A stretch of 33,295 nucleotides of DNA, taken from Rozella allomycis CSF55 (taxonomy: Eukaryota). Shown here in pieces: positions 2,967 through 33,295 of the stretch. The notes under the pieces were generated by a model, which was not told the origin of the DNA, searched no databases, and saw only the letters and a program-made list of their open reading frames with translations. Position 1 is the stretch's first letter. Every line of letters begins with the position of its first letter. The stretch is from contig KE560919.1 in NCBI GenBank assembly GCA_000442015.1, positions 1 to 33,295 on the forward strand, in the 5' to 3' direction. Made by a program: the position numbers and the translations under genes.

Positions 2967-3338
2967 TTCTGAAATTTCATTGTGGAAATCACGGCCATTT
3001 ACACAGGATTTTAGTTCTATAGTTAATTTAAATTTAAACTATTTGATATCAGTTCATTCATTCTGCAATAAAAATTTAATATTGAAGTATACTGTATAGC
3101 AATCAAATGACAAAAGGCATCCTGCTGATTTTTGTAAAACATTAGGCACAATCGATAACGTGCTATGTGACTGTTAATTTGTGAAAATGACTCCATTGTG
3201 ACAGTGTCGAGTTTAAATGTGACATTCTTCTCGCCGAAAGTGGAATAAACCAAGTCTACTAGAAACGTATAATCTGTTCTTAGCGGAAGTTGGAATAACA
3301 AAAGGGAAGGAAGTTATTTGGAATAAATAATAAAAGAG

Positions 3339-3411
3339 CGCCCCAACGGGGGATCGAACCCCGAACCTTGCGGTTAAAAGCCGCACGCTCTACCGATTGA
3401 GCTATCAGGGC
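3339..3411 (-). tRNA. tRNA-Lys (anticodon UUU), intronless
   Basis: The reverse complement GCCCTGATAGCTCAATCGGTAGAGCGTGCGGCTTTTAACCGCAAGGTTCGGGGTTCGATCCCCCGTTGGGGCG folds as a cloverleaf with anticodon loop CT-TTT-AA and T-loop TTCGATC. There is no encoded CCA, and TTTT follows just downstream. Confidence 0.97.
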
Positions 3412-7574: not shown

Positions 7575-8027
7575 TTAAAGTCTTCTTTGCTTCTTTGGTT
7601 TACATCCGTTCATTGGAACGGGTGTACAATCCATCATTTCTACAATCTCAAACGGCCTGCTTCTAAATTGATTAAAAAACGGGACTCTCAGTGTATTATA
7701 TCCTCTTAAATGAATCTTTAACTTGGCAATATCCAATTTCTTTGCTCTCTGTTCAAATTCATCAAGTAACGCTAGCAAGCATTTAGTAGACAGTTTCTTG
7801 GAATTTTTAAACCCAACTTTACCAGCTGAGAGACAAAAGAATGTTTTTTCTGGGTTAATACCATCAATCAAAGTAAGAAATACATTATTCATCGCAAAAC
7901 ACACCATTAATCGATGATAATTACCAACATCACGTTTAGGAAAGTTTGGCACATAACTCCAACATGCTTGACCTGTTAAATATCGTATGGAAGGCAATGC
8001 CTTCTGATAGAGTACCAAATTGGTCAT
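7575..8027 (-). CDS. MRPS11: Mitochondrial ribosomal protein uS11m (start likely 8027; ORF open to 8081)
   Basis: S11 motifs NNVFLTL, SAGKVGFKNSKK and C-terminal DCTPVPMNGCKPKKQRRL; intronless. Confidence 0.88.
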   Translation of the reverse strand: MTNLVLYQKALPSIRYLTGQACWSYVPNFPKRDVGNYHRLMVCFAMNNVFLTLIDGINPEKTFFCLSAGKVGFKNSKKLSTKCLLALLDEFEQRAKKLDIAKLKIHLRGYNTLRVPFFNQFRSRPFEIVEMMDCTPVPMNGCKPKKQRRL

Positions 8028-9322: not shown

Positions 9323-9647
9323 TTATTCATCCTTGGTTTCCTTTTTCTCTACTTTCGTTGCCCATTTCAATGGATGGCTTCTCAAGTACGGCCAAGAAGG
9401 CACAGCGGCCTATATAAGTTCAATTATAATAAACTACTATCAAAACTAGAATAAATGTGATTCCAAATATAGCCGCAGTGTATTCAATTTTCCCTGTGTA
9501 TAACCCCACCAACGCGCCTACCACAGCAGCTGGTGGCAGTGGCAGTTTAATAATCTTTTCCGCCAACACCTGTCCATGAAAATCCTATTTAACAATATAA
9601 TAACCTCATACAGCAGGCGTATCATTGATTATATCCAGCACAGACAT
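9323..9647 (-). CDS. SPC1: Signal peptidase complex subunit 1 (SPC1/SPCS1); introns 9585-9611 and 9410-9437; absent from the ORF track
   Basis: Spliced: MSVLDIINDTPA-DFHGQVLAEKII...two TM segments...AAVPSWPYLRSHPLKWATKVEKKETKDE. DFxGQxLAE and VPxWPxxxxHPLKW are SPC12-family signatures. Confidence 0.92.
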
Positions 9648-9652
9648 TTCCA

Positions 9653-9658
9653 AAATTT
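9653..9658. promoter_or_regulatory. Palindromic AAATTT element shared by divergent SPC1 and MAP1 (putative initiator)
   Basis: It lies in the 20-bp gap between the two ATGs. The same hexamer sits 4-5 nt upstream of the ATG in four other genes. Confidence 0.55.
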
Positions 9659-9667
9659 CCAAAACAA

Positions 9668-10855
9668 ATGAAAATCTGCCATTTAGAGTCTTGCCAAAAG
9701 GAGGCGAAATTCCAGTGCCCCAAGTGTGTCAAGGCAGAGATCCGGGATATATATTACTGCTCGCAGGACTGTTTCAAGGCGGACTGGCCTGAACACAAGA
9801 AGCGGCATCAGGAAGCGGGCCAGTATAATCCGTGGCCTGGATTTGGGTTTACGGGCACATTGAGGCCGTACCCCACGAGTGCTATGCGAAAGGTGCCTGA
9901 GCATATTAAGCGACCTGATTATGCAGAGACTGGTAAAACTGATTGATGGGAATGAAAAAGGGATTCCGGTGAGTGAGCAGGCTGAGCGTGGTAGCTATGC
10001 TATCAGAGTGCTGGACAAGGAGGAGATTGAAAAGATGAAGGTTGTTTGCAGACTGTCGCGGGAGGTGTTGGATATTGCTGGAGCGGCTGTTAAAGTTGGA
10101 GTGACAACCGATGAGATTGACAGGATAGTGCATGAGGAATGTATCAAGAGAAATGCGTATCCATCTCCTTTGAATTATTATAATTTTCCCAAATCATGTT
10201 GCACGTAAGAATAGATGTTAGTTATGAAAGATCTGTGAATGAAGTTATTTGCCATGGAATACCAGATATGAGACCGTTGGAGGATGGAGATATTGTGAAT
10301 ATTGACATTTCATTGTATTTTGATGGATATCATGGGGATGTGAATGAAACATATTTTGTTGGGAATGTTGATGAAAAGAGTCAAAAATTGGTTAGAGTTA
10401 CAAAGGAGTGTTTAGACTTGGCCATACAAATGGGTAAAGTAATTAAAAAGGAATGAAAAGTTAAACCAGGAGTAGCGTACAAGGAGTTGGGCAATGTAAT
10501 TCAGAAACATGCACAGAAGCATGGATTGTCTGTTGTTAGAAGTTATTGTGGACATGGAATTAACAAGTAATGAAAGAGTGGAATGATTATAGTTTGTTTC
10601 ATACAACGCCAAACGTACCGCANTAGTTTGTTTCATACAACACCGAATGTACCGCATTATTCGCGCAACAAGGCTGTTGGGATAATGAAGGCTGGACATT
10701 GTTTTACGATTGAGCCTATGATTAATGAAGGACATTGGAAGGAGAAGCATTGGCCAGATAATTGGACAGCAGCGACTATTGATGGGAAGAGATCTGCGCA
10801 ATTTGAACAAACGTTAGTTGTAACAGAGGATGGATATGAAATATTAACTGCATAA
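9668..10855 (+). CDS. MAP1: Methionine aminopeptidase 1 with N-terminal zinc finger (4 introns; apparent break at N 10623 is likely an assembly artefact)
   Basis: [25 protein letters not shown] zinc finger, [53 protein letters not shown]. Confidence 0.96.
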
Positions 10856-10896: not shown

Positions 10897-13800
10897 CTAG
10901 TCATCGTCATCTTCAATAGTAATTTTAGCTTTTCTTTTCTGAGATTTCATGATTGGCATTTCATTTTCTTTATCTTCTTCATTAAGTGACTCTTTGGTCA
11001 AATTTAGTTCATTCAATTTTGAATTCTCTGTCAAATTGGAATCATTAAATTCTTGACTTTTAAAAGTTTTCCTTCTCTTTTGTTTTAATTCAAGTAATAA
11101 TTCTTGAATTCTTTCTTGATCAACAATTTGTTCATTCTGATCATCGTTTTGACTAAAGACCATTTCATCAGTAGAATGTTTCTTGTTAGATTTAAAAGTA
11201 CCTTTAACACTCTTTCCACTCTTGTTCTTTTCTTCACTCTCTCTCCCTTCTACCTCACTGTCACCCTCAGCCCTTTCAACTTCTCCTTCATCTCCCTTTT
11301 CACCTTCTCCTTCAACTCCTTCTTTTCTCTTTTGCCTGTTGAGTTTTAATTGTTTTAATTTTTCCAATTTATTTTCCTTTTCAATTTCATGTTTATCTTT
11401 TAGTTGAGAAATGTAATTTTCAAATTCATCATTTTCAGAGTCAGAAGAAGAATAATTTAAATTGCTTAAAGATTGTTGGAATAAAGATTGATCAATTGAA
11501 CTCTTTGAACTCAAAATATAAAATGTTAATGGTTTATCTTCTGGTGGTTGAAATTGCTCAATTAGCGTTGAATTCAATATATCTACAATTTCTTGTGAAT
11601 TGAAATCTTGTGGGATTTTCCACAGTAGAGATTCATCATCTTATTTAAAGTGAATAGAATCTTTACCTTTGATTAAACCAATCAAGTCTAGCAAGAGATG
11701 AAAATATTTATTTGTAAACATTTTAAATTCTTTTTGATTCAAAGGTTTGAAATCTTGAGATTCATTGTTTGACAAGAATGATATCAATAGATTGATATAG
11801 TCAGTTTTATTCTTTTGAATTAAGATTGAAGCCACAATTTTAATCTGATCTATTTTAGAGAATTCAGGTGCCACGTATAGATCAAAAGAAGTATTTTTTT
11901 CATATTGCATTCTTGGATCTTTTCCAAGTGTGATATATTTAACATCATAAGATTGTTTTGGATATAAAATTTCCATAATGAGAATTGGATATTCAGAAAC
12001 TTTTTTCATAAAGATTTTAATAAAATAAGAAATAAATTTAAATAAATCTTTTTCTAATTTCATTTCAATCATTTTAAAAAAAGTTGATAGAATTGAAATC
12101 TTATAAAATACAGGGGTCATATTATGTTTAATTAAAAGTTTATGTAAAATTTTCAAACAAAATTCTTTTTCTTTTTTATCTAATATTTCTTTTCCATACA
12201 AAAGTCTCAAAATATTTAAAATTATTAATTCTTCTCCAAATTCCTAAATTTCAGAATCTAAAAATAGATTTTACAATTTCGAAATTTTCTAAATTTTCAT
12301 TTTTCATTCTTTTCAAAAGTTTCATAAAATTAAAAATCCCTCTCAAAATAATAGACAAGTATTGAACTGAAAATTTCATTCCATCTTTTAAAATTAAATA
12401 CAAAATTCTAAATACATTTCCCTCCAAAATTATATTCATCAATTCTTCTTCATTAATCAACTTTATCATCTCTGTCAAACTCTTCACTAAAATTTCAACT
12501 TGTTTCCACTTCTTTTCTTCAAACGATGATGCCAATTCATTCGCCAATGTTAAAATAAAACTTCTATTCAAAACACACTGAATCATTTCAGGCATCAAAT
12601 AAGGAGCATTAGTAGTAGTAGGGGGATTATCAACTACTTTATCACTCTCTTTATCAATTATATTCACTTTGAGCCCTTCACTGTTATTATCATCTTTATT
12701 ATTATGGTTTATATTTTCATCAACCATATCCACTCTATCTATATTCTCTTTATCTTCCACTCTATCATCTTTATTCTCTCCATTGTCCACTCTATCTTTA
12801 TTCTCCACTCTATCTTTAATTCTCTTAGTGGCTTCAACTTCATTGGATGATTCGTGATAGAATTTACAACAGAATGAAATAATATCATAAACTTTCTCAA
12901 CATCATCTTGACTCAAAAGATTATTCGTTTCAATCAATCTATTCGCTTTAGAAATTAATCCATTCATCCCACTTTCAATAAATCTCTTCTAATACCTTAA
13001 CTAAATTTACCTTTTCATAATCTTTTTTGTTATTTTTATTGTTTTAATATCCCCAGTTCTACTTGTATTGCAAAATGATGTCACAAGCTTTCTAGTCCCT
13101 TATCTTCCCACAATCAATCTTCTTTACCTTTAGGAATCGGCATTCTCACTTTCCCTCCACATTTCTTTTCTAAAATTTGTTTTCCATTATCAACCGCAAA
13201 TTCATTCGAATAAAACCTCGTATGTCTTGGCCTCAAATTAACCCTCTTCTCCTTTTGCTTCAATAAACTCAATTTATTAATAATTTCTTCCTTGTAAATC
13301 CCAATCGCACATTTATCTTTAATTATCCCATGAATAATCCCAATCATTATCGTTATCCACTGTGGATACTTTCCTTCATTCATCTCGCCGCAAATACTCA
13401 CAAATATTTCCACAAATCTACTTTGCTCCAACACCTGAATATATTTATCCTTTACATTTCATCTATTCCTCTTACATTAATCTCATCCTTTTGATGCTCA
13501 ATAACCATCAAATTTCTAATCAATGAAAGCACAAGCTGTAACATATTCTTATTCTCCTCATAATTCATCCTTTCTCCACACACTACACCCCCTTACTTGA
13601 ATAGTTTCGCAAAATACATAATCAACCTCTTCCATATCATCACATTACACATCGCTTGCTTATAATTCTGATGAATCTCCACAAAATTCACCCCCTCCTC
13701 CTCTATATTCCACGTCAACGGCACACATATCTCAACTAGTCTCCATTTCCTCATCTCCTTACCAAACAACTGACAATACACATCCTCTGTAGTATTCATC

Positions 13801-14045
13801 AGCATAGGCACCAAATGCTTCTCTATCACATTAAATTTTCCAAGCGTTTCAAACGAAAAATACTCGCGAGAATAATAGTCCTGCTTTAATAATCTCTTCA
13901 TGTCCTTCAAACAGTCCAAACTATTCTCGCCTGGAACAAACACTCCATTGTCTAAAACACCGATGCCAAGCGACAAGTTTAGCAACAGCGAGTGGATGAA
14001 CGGTTTAAGGCGTTCCTGCTTTTCCTCCTTTTCATTTTCATCCAT
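10897..14045 (-). CDS. TOF1: Timeless/Tof1/Swi1 replication-fork protection protein (7 introns of 26-31 nt)
   Basis: N-terminal FVPGENSLDCLKDMKRLLK, LGKFNVIEKHLVPML, LVEICVPLTW, LVLSLIRNLMVI and RHTRF match the Timeless N-terminal domain. ORF fragments join in frame through GT-AG mini-introns. Acidic/basic low-complexity C-terminus. Confidence 0.85.
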
Positions 14046-14224
14046 TTGCGAAATTTCAATGTTTAGGGTAAAGAAATGGCAAATCACCGTAAAATATGCA
14101 GTTAAAAATTCAACGAGATTTATTTCAATTCAATTATATCTCATTAATGATATCATAACGCCATTCCTATTGACACGNACGCCATTCCGATTGACACGAA
14201 AGTTTCTGATCAGTAAATTTCCGA

Positions 14225-15178
14225 ATGAAGTTCCAATCCATTTCATCTCTATTTCTTCTCTTTCTATTCCATCTTTCCCCTTCTTTTTGCTCTTACGGTG
14301 ACAACCAAGAAAGTTTTCGCAGATGCACCCAGTCTTGCCTAAACACTCTATGTCCAGAAAATGAACAATCAAAATCACATCTCAGTTTCTCTCTCAGATT
14401 GCTGCAATGGACATGTCTGGATGACTGCAAGTACCGATGCATGATCAATCAAACTGAAAACGACCTCAAACAAAATAACAGAATACACCAGTATTTTGGG
14501 AAATGGCCGTTTTATCGCATCTTTGGAATGCAGGAATTTGCATCCGTTCTATTCTCTATTGGAAATCTAATCGTGCATTACAGAGGATTCATCATTCTTC
14601 GTTCGTCAATGTCGAATCGTTACTACATGAAACCTTTCTATTTAGTAAACTCTCTTCTTAACATGAACTGCTGGGTTTGGTCAACCATCTTTCATGCTCG
14701 AGATACACCAAGAACTGAACGAATGGACTATTTTTCGGCTGTGTTGATTATAGTATATGGCGTATACTACATGCTACTCAGAATGCTTCAAGCAGATACT
14801 CGCAAAAAGCAGCTATTGTTTGGAATACCATGCTTTGTATATTACATTTTTCATATTTTGTACTGCACGAGAAATCCTAGATTTGACTACTCTTACAATG
14901 TCATCTCTGGCACTATATTCGCAGTTACATTCCAGCTTACATATTTTATTTGGGGATTGCGAAACTTGGACAAACCTTATGCTAAATTGGCAATAGCATT
15001 TACATTTTTGGGAACTTTGGTCATGGGCTTTGAAATATTTGATTTTCCGCCTTATAATTTACTAATTGACGCTCATTCGCTATGGCATCTTTCAACGATT
15101 CCTCTTGTGTCGCTTTGGTATCGATTTTTATTGCAAGATGGAAGATATGAGGCTTTAAGGAGAAAGCAGCTGTTATAA
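14225..15178 (+). CDS. PER1: Per1/PGAP3 GPI lipid-remodelling protein
   Basis: Signal peptide, SYGD, WTCLDDCKYRCM, QYFGKWPFYRIFGMQEFASVLFS, WSTIFHARD, DFPP..LIDAHSLWH; intronless. Confidence 0.95.
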   Translation: MKFQSISSLFLLFLFHLSPSFCSYGDNQESFRRCTQSCLNTLCPENEQSKSHLSFSLRLLQWTCLDDCKYRCMINQTENDLKQNNRIHQYFGKWPFYRIFGMQEFASVLFSIGNLIVHYRGFIILRSSMSNRYYMKPFYLVNSLLNMNCWVWSTIFHARDTPRTERMDYFSAVLIIVYGVYYMLLRMLQADTRKKQLLFGIPCFVYYIFHILYCTRNPRFDYSYNVISGTIFAVTFQLTYFIWGLRNLDKPYAKLAIAFTFLGTLVMGFEIFDFPPYNLLIDAHSLWHLSTIPLVSLWYRFLLQDGRYEALRRKQLL

Positions 15179-15198
15179 CGCAACAAAAATAAATTTAT

Positions 15199-16256
15199 TT
15201 ATTGGCATGAATGAAATAAAATGTCTCCATTGTGAGAGACTGAAACTGTCTTTGATCCCTGCTCATTAAACGCGACTCCCCAAACTTGATTCGTGTGGTC
15301 TTCAATAACATGAAGGCATTGGCGGTTGACTAGATCCCAAACTCTTATTTTCCTGTCACTCGAAGCTGAGGCTAAATAATTTAAGGTTGGATTCACATCT
15401 ATACTAAACACTGATCCAGTATGTCCACTTAACATCGCCAAGGTATTTCCATGCACCCTTCCTTCCAATTAACGTGATTAAACTTACGCGTCATAAAAGT
15501 GAATCTTTTTGTTATCGCCTGAGGAAATGATTGTCTTTGAATCATTTGTGAATTTCACACATCTCACTGTAGATCCATGACCTCGTTTGTAATATTTATT
15601 TTACTTACCTGAAAATGAATTTAACAATTTTCCGGAAGCGACATCGATCACAAATACATGTCCTGTTTCAGACCCTACACCCAAATACATTCCATTTGGA
15701 CTCTTTATCAAATCAATCAAACCTATTTACAAATTTCATCGCGGTGATAAACTTTCCTTTAGTTTCAATAACAGCTTCTGAATTTTGAAGCTCATTTGAC
15801 CAAAATGTTATTTTGCCTTGATAATTGCCAGTTGCAACAAGTTGTCCATTTGGAGAAATTGCAGCACACCATGCTTCGACTGGCCCAAGTTCGGCAGTCT
15901 TGATAGGGAGCAAATTCTGAGTATCCCATAATTTCAATTGGTGATCCAAAGATGTAGATACAGCCACTAAGCTGAAATCCTTTCAAACACATTTACAAGT
16001 AGAACTGATTGCACAATCAAGACTTGATGTTCCCAGATTGTGTCCCTGTAAAGCACTAAGCATCTCATAATTCTCACCATTCCTATGTTAAAGTTTCTCT
16101 TATTTTACCAGCACATTATTTGGCCATCAACAGATCCAGTCAAAATTCTATTTGATTTGTAATTCCAGCAGCAGTTCCATATCGAGTCTTTGTGTGCGTT
16201 TTTTATCGTATGCAAAGAAGCAAACTAGAGACAGATTTACGGCTCAAAATTACCAT
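15199..16256 (-). CDS. SKI8: WD40 protein Ski8/WDR61/Rec14 (6 introns; first coding exon is ATG alone)
   Basis: Spliced start M-FASLHTIKNAHKDSIWNCCW, LTGSVDG, GHNLG, STSLD, ELGPVEAW, GKF, LSGHTGSVFSI, SASSDRKIRVWD, HTNQVWGVAF match WDR61. Confidence 0.88.
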
Positions 16257-16332: not shown

Positions 16333-16796
16333 ATGTTTACTGACTTTTCCTTGGCTCCAAATAGAAATGAAACTAAAGTAGAGATAAATGGGCCATACGG
16401 TGTACATGACACTCTTCGCCAAGGCTTTAAATCGGTCAGAAAAGAGTTTACAGCTGGTCATCCACTTGAGCCCGTGCTATCATCTGTAAGAATATTTTTA
16501 ATTACTAGATTAGAAATTGGAGACTGAAAACAAGATCAAATTATCGATGATGAGGAATAACTATGGACTTCACATGCCATTAAGACATATAATGGAACAA
16601 AAGATTGTTGGAATGCCAAAAAGGTTACCAGTTTTAAAGTCTAGTTCAATTGCAATGGATACTCTTTTAGGAAAGGATGAAACAATTGACGTTGAAGACT
16701 TTATGGGAGGTAAGATTATTGGGGTCTTTTATACAAGATGTTGAATTTCAACTTGCGTCCCACAATGTTCATGAAGTTATGGATTCAATGTTTTAA
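16333..16796 (+). CDS. UMP1: Proteasome maturation factor Ump1/POMP (2 introns)
   Basis: GVHDTLRQG, HPLE, RNNYGLHMPLR..ME, DTLLGKDETIDVEDF, terminal VHEVMDSMF. Confidence 0.93.
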
Positions 16797-16830
16797 ATAA
16801 AAATACAATGTGATTTTAAAAATATTGATT

Positions 16831-22837: not shown

Positions 22838-25800
22838 TTATTGTTTTGAATACATTTTGTAAGAATCCAAAAGATCATCATTAAAAGATTTTGCTTCAGT
22901 GGATCTCGATATTATTTTATCCAAATCCAAAGCCTTTAAGTTTATAAATGTTTCAAACGATTCCAGCATTTTCAACGTTGAAACGTACAAAGAAATAACC
23001 AGGGTACAATATTCGGCGGCAATAATGCAACATTCAAACATGTTGTTCTTATCACAAACCTTTAATTCTGCTCTCTTATTCAATATATCGTAAACTATTT
23101 TGAAAATTGCTGGTAGACATGACTTTATCATTGTTGAAATCTCTTCAATATTTTGACCCTGGTTTATCAATTTTCTTCTAATGTTACCTGTAGTTCTGTT
23201 AACTTTGAATCACTTAATGTTTCAATGGTAGGTTTTGCGGTACCATCAAAGAGAATATGTAAATTACGAACTATTTTAGTTTCCAGAGTAGTTTTACCTA
23301 TCCTTAGGATTCTCTTTTGATCATTTTCATTTTGGCAATTCTCGTTTATAGATTTAAGAGAATTTATTATATCTTTAAAGAACAATAACAAGATTTTATA
23401 TGAAACGGACAGAATTAAGAGAGAGTTGGAATCATAGAAATCTTTTGAAGAATTAATGAACAGTTCAATGTCCATTTTGATATTTTCTTCTTCAATTGGA
23501 AAGTTTGCAATGTTTTCAAAATCTCCATTTCTCGATTCTTGCATCGAAGGTTCGAGAAATTCAATTAATAGTCCTTTAATCAATTCTTTGTCTTTTAAAT
23601 CATTTAAAAATTCAGAAACAACATTTTCAGGCAACCCCAATGAAATTTGATTGTCTTCTAGAGAGATAATAATGTTGTCGATGGGGATTTTACATAAAAC
23701 AGCTATTTCTTCCTTTAAAACATCTAAAGATTCTAAATTTTTATTATATTTAAAATTTGTAAAAGTTATATTGGATGATTCCAACAACTCGGGTTCATCT
23801 AGTGGCTTGGGTTGATCTAAGAAGTTTGTTTGAATTTCTGGTGATGCGATAGATTGCGTATACTGTAAAGTTTGATTATCATTTGCTTCTGTCAATTCTT
23901 TAGAGATTGAAATTTTAGAAATCTCATCGTTAGGAATTGCATCACTAGAAATCTCTTGTTTCGATATTGAATCTTTAGATAATGATTCTTTAATTTTCCT
24001 GAATGATTCATCGTAATAATCAAAGCTAGATTGCCTATTTTTCCTTCGTTTAATAAAAGTTGATCTTTTTAGTTTTTCTTCTAAACGTTTTTCATAAGCA
24101 AACGCGTCATCATCATTTTCATCACCAGAGCTTGATTCATCTAAGACAGGGACAGAGTAAAGATCTGTAGTTTCATTTAAAGATTCAGAAGGAAGTAGAT
24201 CATCTTCAGGACGTGTAATTTCGTCAAAGAAAGAATCGACTTGGTTTATCAATAAGAATAATTGTTCAGCGTCACTTGGTCTTGGGGTTATTGTAGAATG
24301 AGATTTTATTAACATTTCCATTTCCAATCTCGCATTTTCAAAATCTTCTTGAAAATCATTTTGAAAATCATCGTCAAGATCAACTTTGTCTATTTCTGAA
24401 TTTTCAAATTCTAATGCAACTTTGAATAGTTCAACTAGATGTTTATTGTTTTGCATGCAAGTATCAAATATCCAATTAATAAAACTTTTGGGAAATCCTT
24501 TCAACTTTCCAAAGGAAATCATTCTCTCTTTAATAAATGCTATTTAGTAAATTTCCTATATTTTACCCTGGTATTCTTTAGAGAAATTGTTTAGAAGAAT
24601 AAAGAGAGATTCTTTAATTGATGCCAAAGAGTCATCATAGTTGTATAATGAAAAGAAAGTTTTCTGAAAATCATTTATAGAAGCAAATCTTTTTAACGGT
24701 GAATTAAATGGATTACCTGGTTGAATGTAAATGTAAGAAAAACATTCCCAACTTGTTGAGATTTAATTTAGTGCATAAAGAATTTAAATTTAATCCTAAT
24801 GATGCAATGTCATTTTTGAGGGAAGGATTATCGCTTTTAATGTAATGAATAAAGAAGGGTAAAGATAACCAAATGATTGAATTTAACCCGCTGTTTGTAA
24901 GAGTGTTGATTGAATTGGTTAATAGAATGAGAAAAGATAGAGAATATTTGCTCTGATGAAGAATTGAGATTAAATCTAATAAAGTATTTTCAATTTGATT
25001 TTCAATTTGATTTTTAGTATGACTTTCATTTTGATTTTGAATTTTAATTGGTGAAGATTTGTTTAAAAGATTTTCAATTAAACGAAAAGTTTCAAATTTT
25101 TCATTTTCAGATCCATTAGCCTTTAAGATCAAAACGAGACCGTGGAATAAAAGAGAAAAATTTTCAAAATCATTTTCATTTAAAAAAGGAATGAAGAATT
25201 CAATAATTTGTAAAATTTGAATGACAAACGTAGAAATTTCAGAATGTTTATCACCAATGATGTTTGATAGACGATTGAATAATTCACAAAAAGGAAAAGA
25301 ATTATTTGAAAAGAGTTGATAAGAATTTAAAGAATGAAATATTTGAAGAGATCTGTAAGCTAAATGGCGTATTGGACAAGTTGTTATCCATTTAATACAC
25401 AATTTAGACCATTGAAGAATAAAAGAATTATTAAAATAATTTAATAAATATTTAATCAAAGAATTTAGTTTTGAAAAACTTTCCAGGGTTAAAAAAGAAT
25501 CTTTTGGATCTTCAAAATCCCAAATTAGATCTCTTAAATGTATTGAATTATTTAAATTATTTAAATCTTTCTCAATCTCAATCTTAATCTCAATCACATT
25601 CTCAGGCTTAATCTTATTCCCATCTTGAAAGTGAAAAATAATCTTTTGAATAATTTGCTGTGAATGAAAAACTAAAATTTGATTAAAATGATCTAAATGA
25701 ATCACACACGCCAATAAAATAACATCAAGGTGAGATTCAATTGAGTTGAAATTAAATGAAATTAATTCAGAAAGAAAAATTAAAGCCAATTGGCCAACAC

Positions 25801-30435: not shown

Positions 30436-33295
30436 AGCTGTAATGTGGCTAAGCCAATGAAATGAAATCTGCGGTACTCCAAGCTGAGTTGCCCCTATAA
30501 ATAGTATCAACGTGACATTATTTTTCAGCTTCTCCGTTAAAACAAAGCCATATATTTAGTCTCAGTATTAATAAGAAACAATGACAGTCATAGATACCTT
30601 AACAAAAGTTCACCAGTGACCTTGTCTTTAACAGTACAGAACCCTTCATTAAACAATACACAATTCATTTGAAAAAAATTGATTTATGATTGACTTATGG
30701 AACATAGAGACCATTAGATAAGAGAAAGCTTCACTGTGCCATCGCGAAATAGCACCTCGAGTGTGACAGACCCTGAACCTGGAGTTTCAGTTTTGATTAG
30801 CATGCTCTTGTCAATAAAGTTATTTATATTGTGGCTCATATGATGAGTTCATCATGTGTCAAATAGCAAAGTGTTACCCGATAATAATGCATGGTTAGCT
30901 TCTAAATTTACAACGTGGTCTACGGTTGCTGTTGTGTGTTGTAATAGTAAATTGTTGGCGGTTACATGAAGGCAGCTTAAGAAGAATATGATGGAGTTTA
31001 ATGGTGCTTCAACATTGTGAACAATTTTCGATTCAGGTTAGCAATGTTTGCCGCGTGTATTTGCGGGTTATCGAAATGTATACGAGGTGGTCGGGCACCT
31101 CGTGGTTTTCTTGTTAAAGGGGAATGTGGACAGTTCTGGAAAGTGTGACCAGCAGTGCGACAATTGCTGCAAAACAGATATTGAGGTTTTCCAAAGTGGA
31201 CGAAGACCGCAGATATGTGATGCGTGCTTTGTCAGGGGTCAGATATAACAGCAGCCTGGTGGCAATGCGGGAAAAAGATTATAATCTTTGTCTAAAAGTA
31301 ATAGAATGGATGGATGGATAGATAAAATAATAATATGAAAGTGAATCAGAGAGATGAGATAGAAACCGATTAGAAGCTGACTGACCTTATAAAAGGACTT
31401 TTGGTGAAAGTATATGAAGCTTTAAACTAGTTAACAGAATGTGATCCGGCGATAGCCGGAACTTGCCAGGATTTATGTAATGTTTTCGTGCTTTTATAAG
31501 GATCAGTTTNTGTAATGTTTGCGTGCTTTTATAAGGATCAGTTTCTATGGTAACAGGAGCGATTTCCTCTGTACGCTTCCATAATGTTCCTTACGTAATG
31601 AGTATCGCAGATTAAACACAATTAAATATATTTCATGTTAACAGAAAGCATTGCGTGATAGATGTCGTGACCTTTAGAGCAGTCTCCTTCCAGGGCGTCA
31701 TTGTTAAGTAATTGAAGGTGTTCATTTAAGGCTGATTGTGTTGATGGTTGATTTTGAAGAAGTGACACACCTGGGTTTTGGTATTGGTCTTAGGGGCTAG
31801 TAGAGGCTTTCTGAATAATTGAGGCATCATGAACTCTGTAACAACCGCGTCTTTGAAACGTCAATAACAGCGCTATACGTTTCTAGAGAAGACCATGTAA
31901 AGTTTCATGTTCTTTAAAAGTTGATTGCGTCCAAGTTGAATGTTGGCGTCATACCAATAGCTGAAAATGCCGTTTGTTTCTACCTTGAACACTGGTATTG
32001 TCGATTGGGCCGTTTATTTATCCACTCATACTGTTGGGACTTGATGGATGACTACACAAAGAACTTTTGAATGATGCTAAATCAGCTGATCTTAGTGAAT
32101 TAGATTTGAACTATGGCATCGTTGTGGACGTCAAGAGTATTCACTTTTGCATTTGAGAGTTTTGACAAACTCCTATTCTAAGAAGAAATAATATCATATA
32201 CAAATTGCGCCTGTTTGCAACAACTAGCGGACTAAAACTTCCTCATAAAATATAAATATCAATATAATAATATGCCTGGAAAGCTTAAAATCTAAATTTT
32301 TGACTCGCTTTATATTGAATACCATGTCAGGGGGTGTTCAGACACTCCGGGAGTGTAAAGATTTAGCAAGCAGCCTCTGGACCTCACAAGGTTCGAATTC
32401 ACAAAAGATTTTGCTTTGCGTGCGCTCATTCATCAAACAATGCAAAGCGTTACGTGCATCGCCAACTCTGGACATTGATCACCTTACAGCCATGATTTCG
32501 CTCAGTCAACCACATTCATGTCATTCGGGAACCGGAAGCCGACTCGTTGAATGTAGTAAAGATGAAAATCCATAAAATCAATATCATAAACGATCGTAGT
32601 TTCCGGGAAGGCCAAAAACATGAACATTAGCATCGAAGCCCCATGAAAAATTGTTGTCAAGGTTTTATGATTGGACTCCAAATGCAGGTGCCACAGATTA
32701 TCTTACCTTCAACACAGAAGACGTCAATACTTACGAACGTTTACCGACATCTATCACAGTCGCCAATGGTCAGTTTGCATTGTGAAAATCTGTTTTGATA
32801 ATGAAATATCCACGGTTATGTTCAATGAAATGTCCCGAATGCTAATCTTTGCCTCATTTCTATTAGTCGTCTTTGCATCAATCAACTATCAGTCCTTTTC
32901 TTTAATAATTGTTGCTATGTAATTAAGCCGAATACGCCTGTTGTGCCAAAAAAGCATGATTGAACTTTGTACATGTCAGAAGTTAACTTTTGTTATAACG
33001 GCGCTTTTAGAATTCGAACACGATTTTTCAACCCTATGACCGCTTCTACCTACCACTATTCGTGTTTTTGAATGGTAGTCGTTACAACGGCGAAGCTCCC
33101 ATAACATCAAGTCTCTAAAAGGAAACAGCGTAATCATATTAATACAATTTCTGTGAGCATATAACTAGCGTCTGCTACATCGAAAGTGTCGCTCCATGCG
33201 CTTATAGTATCTTAGTCCTCATAAATTGGATAGTAAATCGTAAAATAAAAGAGTTAAACTGAAGTCGATTGAGAATGGATTATCCTCCGTTCTAT

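Follow-up and report, generated by a model that had tools for sequence, protein, structure and literature searches.

In the fungal parasite Rozella allomycis CSF55, the housekeeping genes SPC1 (minus strand) and MAP1 (plus strand) are arranged head to head with only 20 nt between their start codons, and a single AAATTT element close to both starts is a candidate initiator for the two genes, whose mRNAs would carry very short leaders. We assign this reading a probability of about 50%. The window analysed, that is, the whole stretch of DNA under study, comprises 33,295 nucleotides and all positions are given relative to its first letter. The spacer between the two genes (9648 to 9667) is 20 nt long, reads TTCCAAAATTTCCAAAACAA and has a G+C content of 25%. 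It is bounded by the CAT at 9645-9647, which is the SPC1 start codon in the minus strand, and by the MAP1 ATG at 9668-9670, and the 20-bp distance between divergent starts given in an earlier, sequence-only reading of this DNA can be read directly in the sequence. Head-to-head genes with a short common spacer, a feature of bidirectional promoters, are found here on opposite strands and 20 nt apart.

SPC1 (also SPCS1), encoding the 12 kDa subunit of the signal peptidase complex, extends from 9323 to 9647 in the minus strand. It was modelled as 90 codons in three exons (9612-9647, 9435-9584 and 9323-9409, the last one including the stop codon) separated by introns of 27 nt (9585-9611) and 25 nt (9410-9434; 28 nt with an alternative GTAGTT donor). 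The Pfam profile SPC12 (PF06645) matched exon 2 from its first residue onwards, over profile positions 2-51 (E 1.1e-9; 38.7 bits, cut-off 23.6), and exon 3 over positions 52-69 (E 7.6e-4; 20 bits, alone below the 23.6-bit cut-off). The exon 3 match extends that of exon 2, and the profile is matched over the two-helix core that characterizes SPC12/SPCS1 proteins. The gene needs a 5' exon because exon 2 has no Met and is preceded by an in-frame stop; all six introns modelled in SPC1 and MAP1 measure 25-28 nt and, therefore, this first exon must be 9612-9647. The public partial model ROZALSC1DRAFT_30389, a hypothetical protein of R. allomycis CSF55, begins with MSVLDIINDTPA followed by DFHGQ, and its start Met and first intron are identical to those of our model. 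The start codon (9645-9647) is the sole ATG in exon 1 and no in-frame ATG occurs 5' of it before the stop at 9729-9731. In the orthologue searches with SPC1, the only match was the Rozella model itself; the chicken SPCS1 fusion chain 6wve_A aligned from SPC1 residue 2, weakly (E 0.11).

MAP1, whose product is methionine aminopeptidase 1 bearing a zf-C6H2 finger at the N-terminus, extends from 9668 to 10855 in the plus strand, with 348 codons in five exons (9668-9932, 9961-10204, 10231-10433, 10461-10566 and 10628-10855) and introns of 28, 26, 27 and 26 nt. The zf-C6H2 profile (PF15801) was matched from residue 4 (E 1.5e-15) and Peptidase_M24 (PF00557) matched three exons located after the finger, which is the order of domains, zf-C6H2 followed by the M24 peptidase fold, that defines MetAP1 proteins with an N-terminal zinc finger. 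The names SPC1 and MAP1 proposed from the letters alone were thus borne out by the Pfam matches. In 309 residues, the spliced translation showed a single mismatch to the public methionine aminopeptidase, partial, of R. allomycis CSF55, and the first 89 residues, encoded by exon 1, were 100% identical to the N-terminus of the public R. allomycis CSF55 protein. It must be noted that the region of the last exon (10593-10657) contains a duplicated stretch of 30 nt, with 3 mismatches, around an N at 10623. The segment 10593-10627 looks like an assembly artefact, as if two alleles had been joined by the assembler. One of the copies must be dropped because otherwise the reading frame is lost, and the public model also drops one. 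A metatranscriptome carrying the same species label yielded a single 44-nt piece with 90-95% likeness in the M24 domain; its flanks were unlike those of MAP1 and, therefore, it was rejected as a Rozella transcript.

Both start codons are correctly placed, as had been assumed in the sequence-only reading. The public CSF55 models use the same Met in both cases, including that of MAP1 at 9668-9670, whose upstream frame lacks any ATG as far as the stop at 9626-9628. The alignment of orthologues that had been proposed as a check on the starts was performed and gave N-termini of matching length (7 MetAP1 sequences; 6wve_A for SPC1, weak). In the 7 aligned MetAP1 N-termini the first Cys is located 3-10 residues past the Met, and the short leader peptide of MAP1 is likewise seen in metagenomic relatives. 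A mis-called start in one of the genes, with the true coding starts further apart, is very improbable. Such an error could be suspected from the public models, both marked as partial, and from SPC1 exon 1, which has just 12 codons in a protein of weak similarity to vertebrate SPCS1 (E 0.11), but there is no other in-frame ATG upstream of either start, a downstream MAP1 start would remove the first zinc-finger Cys, SPC1 exon 2 has no Met, and the six introns of 25-28 nt tie SPC1 exon 1 to 9612-9647.

The window as a whole is very compact. The six pairs of divergent genes have start-to-start spacers of 20, 76, 82, 138, 179 and 412 nt, convergent stop codons are 20-41 nt apart, and AATAAA is found within a few nt after stops, and within ~15 nt at most of the other stops in the window. 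The SPC1/MAP1 spacer is the extreme of this tight distribution and not an isolated oddity. Regarding the convergent genes, PER1 and a WD40-repeat gene have 20 nt between their stops (15179-15199), and this gap holds the palindrome AATAAATTTATT (15188-15199) with AATAAA in both strands, which could be a common two-way polyadenylation signal. A tRNA-Lys gene (anticodon UUU; 3338-3411, minus strand) lies between protein-coding genes and was the only finding of the Rfam scan at the gathering threshold. The region from 31 to 33.3 kb is without clean gene models; at about 31000-31400 (minus strand) it contains a broken frame with a CX2CX4HX4C zinc-knuckle-like stretch (CSNCRTAGHTFQNC), which may be a decayed retroelement.

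The AAATTT palindrome occupies positions 9653-9658; its distance to the ATG is 5 nt for SPC1 and 9 nt for MAP1. The spacer reads GGAAATTTTGGAA-ATG toward SPC1 (minus strand) and CCAAAATTTCCAAAACAA-ATG toward MAP1 (plus strand). The two sequence elements originally described for it are present: the palindrome common to both genes was located within the spacer, and the direct repeat TTTCCAAAA is exact, at 9647-9655 and 9656-9664. A better description is an exact tandem duplication of ATTTCCAAA at 9646-9663 (plus strand); its first copy shares the AT of the start codon of SPC1, and AAATTT arises at the junction between the two copies. An extended palindrome was considered and rejected, self-complementarity being limited to the 6-nt core. 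The element is accompanied by short C/G runs: toward MAP1 there is a CC (9659-9660) and toward SPC1 a GG (complement of 9650-9651).

Neither AAATTT nor the repeat unit is unusual in number. There are 74 AAATTT matches in the window compared with 82.7 ± 8.5 in shuffled sequences, i.e., the motif is not over-represented, and from the window counts one AAATTT is expected arithmetically in about 3% of 20-nt stretches. Sequences matching TTTCCAAAA with at most one mismatch number 56, near the expected 48.6. The exact 9+9 tandem does exceed chance: such tandems occur at 8 positions in 4 loci, whereas 100 first-order simulations gave 0.4 positions on average; the three further loci are at 11343, 25546-25549 and 28329. 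These data bear on a reading in which the spacer has no specific role, the 9-nt tandem being the product of neutral slippage or of an assembly error (the true spacer might then be 11 nt), transcription initiating diffusely in AT-rich DNA and the AAATTT near ATGs being no more than a consequence of an AT-rich base content there. We regard this as improbable. It draws on the lack of enrichment of AAATTT in the whole window, on the exact tandems at three other loci and on the artefactual near-duplicates around the Ns at 10623 and 14178, and we count as evidence against an initiator both that AAATTT is made by the junction of a 9-nt tandem, which slippage or assembly error could explain, and that the assembly has artefactual duplications elsewhere. 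Those other duplications, however, are imperfect and contain an N, whereas the SPC1/MAP1 tandem is exact and has none.

The position of AAATTT relative to start codons appears to be non-random in the window, albeit on small numbers. For this analysis, 17 gene starts of this single 33-kb window were called by eye on the basis of ORFs, Pfam matches and the rule of the first ATG, omitting a 5'-truncated nucleoporin, the ORF 3023-3313 and the 31-33.3 kb region. AAATTT was present within 15 nt upstream of 5 of the 17 starts (gene B at 2966, minus strand; SPC1; MAP1; Timeless at 14045, minus strand; PER1 at 14225, plus strand) compared with 25 of all 1366 ATGs in the window (binomial P 1.1e-5). Within 30 nt the figures were 6/17, the WD40 gene at 16256 (minus strand) being added, and 69/1366 (binomial P 1.3e-4), and the motif was absent within this distance at the other 11 starts. 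When SPC1 and MAP1 were left out, AAATTT was found within 15 nt in 3/15 starts (P 0.0024) and within 30 nt in 4/15 (P 0.0057). The preference for starts was maintained against ATG controls matched for G+C content (25/655, 3.8%, versus 6/16 starts; P 1.8e-5), which argues against a spacer without a role. So do the unsupervised 6-mer counts in the 30 nt upstream of the starts, in which the C-containing AATTTC and ATTTCC are enriched alongside AAATTT (AATTTC, AAATTT and ATTTCC rank second to fourth), and the spacing of 4-5 nt between AAATTT and ATG repeated in five genes (SPC1, gene B, Timeless, PER1 and the second ATG of S11 at 8027, minus strand). A wider form of the motif, AAATT[TC]C, was picked after the data had been seen. 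In contrast, gene starts could not be separated statistically from gene 3' flanks, which are also AT-rich and non-coding, at this sample size (near distance, 5/17 versus 1/14, Fisher 0.13; wider distance, 6/17 versus 2/14, Fisher 0.18), and this favours the absence of a specific role. ATGs located exactly 5 nt past an AAATTT showed only a modest excess (7 versus 3.0 expected, P 0.035) which, like the 11 starts lacking the motif, counts against an initiator. Other start codons of the window also have AAATTT 4-9 nt ahead of them, and 4 of the 6 divergent spacers contain it. At Timeless/PER1, with 179 nt separating the starts, each gene has an AAATTT copy 4-5 nt before its ATG.

Some of these genes deserve further description. 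The Timeless/PER1 spacer contains a single N at 14178 (region 14160-14200) flanked by near-identical duplicates of ~19 nt with 1 mismatch, like two alleles joined. The WD40-repeat gene has a first exon that apparently consists of the ATG alone (16256-16254), followed by a 29-nt intron and a next exon with FASLHTIKNAHKDSIW (16225-16256). Opposite to it, with 76 nt between the starts and one AAATTT, lies a small plus-strand gene (16333-16800) with at least one mini-intron, which by eye resembles a proteasome maturation factor (UMP1/POMP type: HDTLRQG, HPLE). In the mitochondrial ribosomal S11 gene, the first ATG (8081) is located 33 nt past the chitin deacetylase stop, with the AATAAA of the latter in between, while ahead of the second ATG (8027) lies CGAAATTTCG followed by 4 nt, and this ATG may be the real start. 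The AAATTT signal could guide the placement of start codons in Rozella gene models, this second S11 ATG being a candidate case.

The sequence-only reading had left two explanations for the spacer, either a minimal bidirectional initiator giving leaders shorter than about 10 nt or promoters lying in the coding sequence of the partner gene. We favour the first one because AAATTT recurs 4-9 nt before other starts of the window and because of an upstream ATG in SPC1. We infer that AAATTT acts as promoter or initiator and that transcripts would start at or near it. Given its palindromic 6-bp core, the single AAATTT copy could be read in both directions, as AAATTTCC-N7-ATG for MAP1 in the plus strand and as AAATTTTGG-N2-ATG for SPC1 in the minus strand. 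Transcription of both genes would begin in the element or right beside it, and the leaders would not exceed about 15 nt, in line with measurements in Microsporidia, the sister group. Timeless/PER1 would represent the unfused state, and SPC1/MAP1 looks like the same layout collapsed onto one AAATTT copy. A conventional TATA box, located about 30 nt before the transcription start, was ruled out, given that in five genes a mere 4-5 nt separate AAATTT from the ATG.

The second explanation, by which the divergent transcripts overlap, their promoters and starts lying in the first exon or intron of the partner gene, and the AAATTT of the spacer is incidental, is less likely though still to be taken seriously. 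Overlapping or multigene transcripts occur at more than 80% of the loci analysed in Encephalitozoon cuniculi, according to the Background section of PMC2803860, and in the window the tight spacing (a distance of 33 nt between the stop of chitin deacetylase and the first S11 ATG, and of 20-41 nt between convergent stops) forces UTRs into neighbouring genes. No ATG occurs in the 89 nt preceding the MAP1 start codon and, therefore, a MAP1 transcript starting inside SPC1 would carry no cost. This does not hold for SPC1, for which an out-of-frame upstream ATG is found at 9680-9682 (minus strand), 35 nt before its start codon; the uORF that begins there has 17 codons and overlaps with the start of SPC1. 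Any SPC1 mRNA beginning at least 36 nt upstream, with a leader of over 35 nt, would include it, so that long SPC1 leaders are weakly disfavoured. Additionally, no second AAATTT-type element was found in the 60 nt further upstream of SPC1 or MAP1, and the closeness of AAATTT to the ATG at other genes suggests that transcripts start near the ATG.

It had also been suggested that the pairing reflects the joint role of both proteins on nascent N-termini. This idea found no support, since no SPC1 relative was detected next to any of 80 metagenomic MAP1 loci searched by tblastn with spliced SPC1, a weak test in view of the short (90-residue) and divergent query; the best hit (E 0.77) was not upstream and divergent. 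At one of these loci (L004), GAATTTCC precedes the MAP1 ATG by 10 nt; the contig, however, has no introns and carries a Sec61-gamma-like gene (by eye) upstream in the same strand, and the locus was, therefore, discarded as a close relative.

If the shared initiator is real, the SPC1/MAP1 spacer would rank with the smallest bidirectional promoters that have been proposed in any eukaryote, and the locus would show how small a stretch of DNA can suffice for a eukaryote to start two genes. If this reading fails, SPC1/MAP1 would simply be an ordinary instance of crowded genes, the tightest one, in the compact genome of a parasite. In the literature searched, which included few subscription papers, there was no account of an AAATTT start signal in Rozella, and one may be published elsewhere; a search on Rozella UTRs, RNA-seq and compactness, with the same scope, gave nothing on transcript ends.

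Head-to-head genes with one common regulatory region are known from the bidirectional promoters of animals and yeast and from the AT-rich bidirectional initiators of Giardia. These regions typically cover hundreds of bp and, unlike at SPC1/MAP1, the leaders need not fit into 20 bp. The fungal RRPE element (AAAAATTTT) has the core AAAATTT and belongs to ribosome-biogenesis genes, which form one regulon, and it is located further upstream, whereas the Rozella element adjoins the start codon in Timeless, PER1, SPC1 and MAP1, which are unrelated genes.

The closest likeness is with the Microsporidia, the sister lineage of Rozella. In E. cuniculi, 5' UTRs of less than 7 nt were determined by RACE, a CCC-like motif was described directly before the ATG with an AAATTT-like signal before the CCC, and this signal helped to amend over 18% of the coding sequences (Peyretaillade et al., 2009, PMC2803860). 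Microsporidian AAATTT-like and CCC/GGG-like signals were also reported by Cornman et al. (2009), as cited in PMC2803860. As in these signals, the Rozella AAATTT is upstream of and near the ATG (5 nt at SPC1, 9 nt at MAP1), has C next to it (G in the other strand) and seems to recur among genes. It differs in that no CCC/GGG-like triplet but only CC/GG doublets are found between AAATTT and ATG, in its frequent distance of 4-5 nt from the ATG, nearer than in the microsporidian examples tabulated in PMC2803860, and in its presence at about a third of the callable starts in the window. By analogy, the SPC1/MAP1 element would work like the microsporidian signal, strict membership not being claimed as the triplet is missing. 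We tentatively propose, as somewhat doubtful still, that a core promoter of AAATTT type close to the start codon, together with nearly leaderless mRNAs, is common to Rozella and Microsporidia, and that one 6-bp palindrome drives SPC1 and MAP1, both essential genes, in opposite directions. The microsporidian start-proximal signal and ultra-short leaders would then be older than the extreme genome reduction of Microsporidia and would go back to the ancestor that they share with Rozella.

The nearest individual parallel is the E. cuniculi pair S16 (ECU03_310)/L13 (ECU03_320), divergent genes 35 bp apart for which a palindrome was proposed to serve both (PMC2803860). Like SPC1/MAP1, this pair is divergent, has some tens of bp between the genes and contains one palindromic AAATTT. 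At the Rozella locus the distance is 20 instead of 35 bp, the genes are non-ribosomal and the host is a cryptomycete with many mini-introns. The bidirectional use of the S16/L13 palindrome is a proposal, as it is at SPC1/MAP1. Finally, Nematocida parisii has short or absent UTRs and a mean intergenic distance of 418 bp (Cuomo et al., 2012, PMC3514677) and, like Rozella, it has a compact genome in which short intergenic distances constrain the length of the UTRs.
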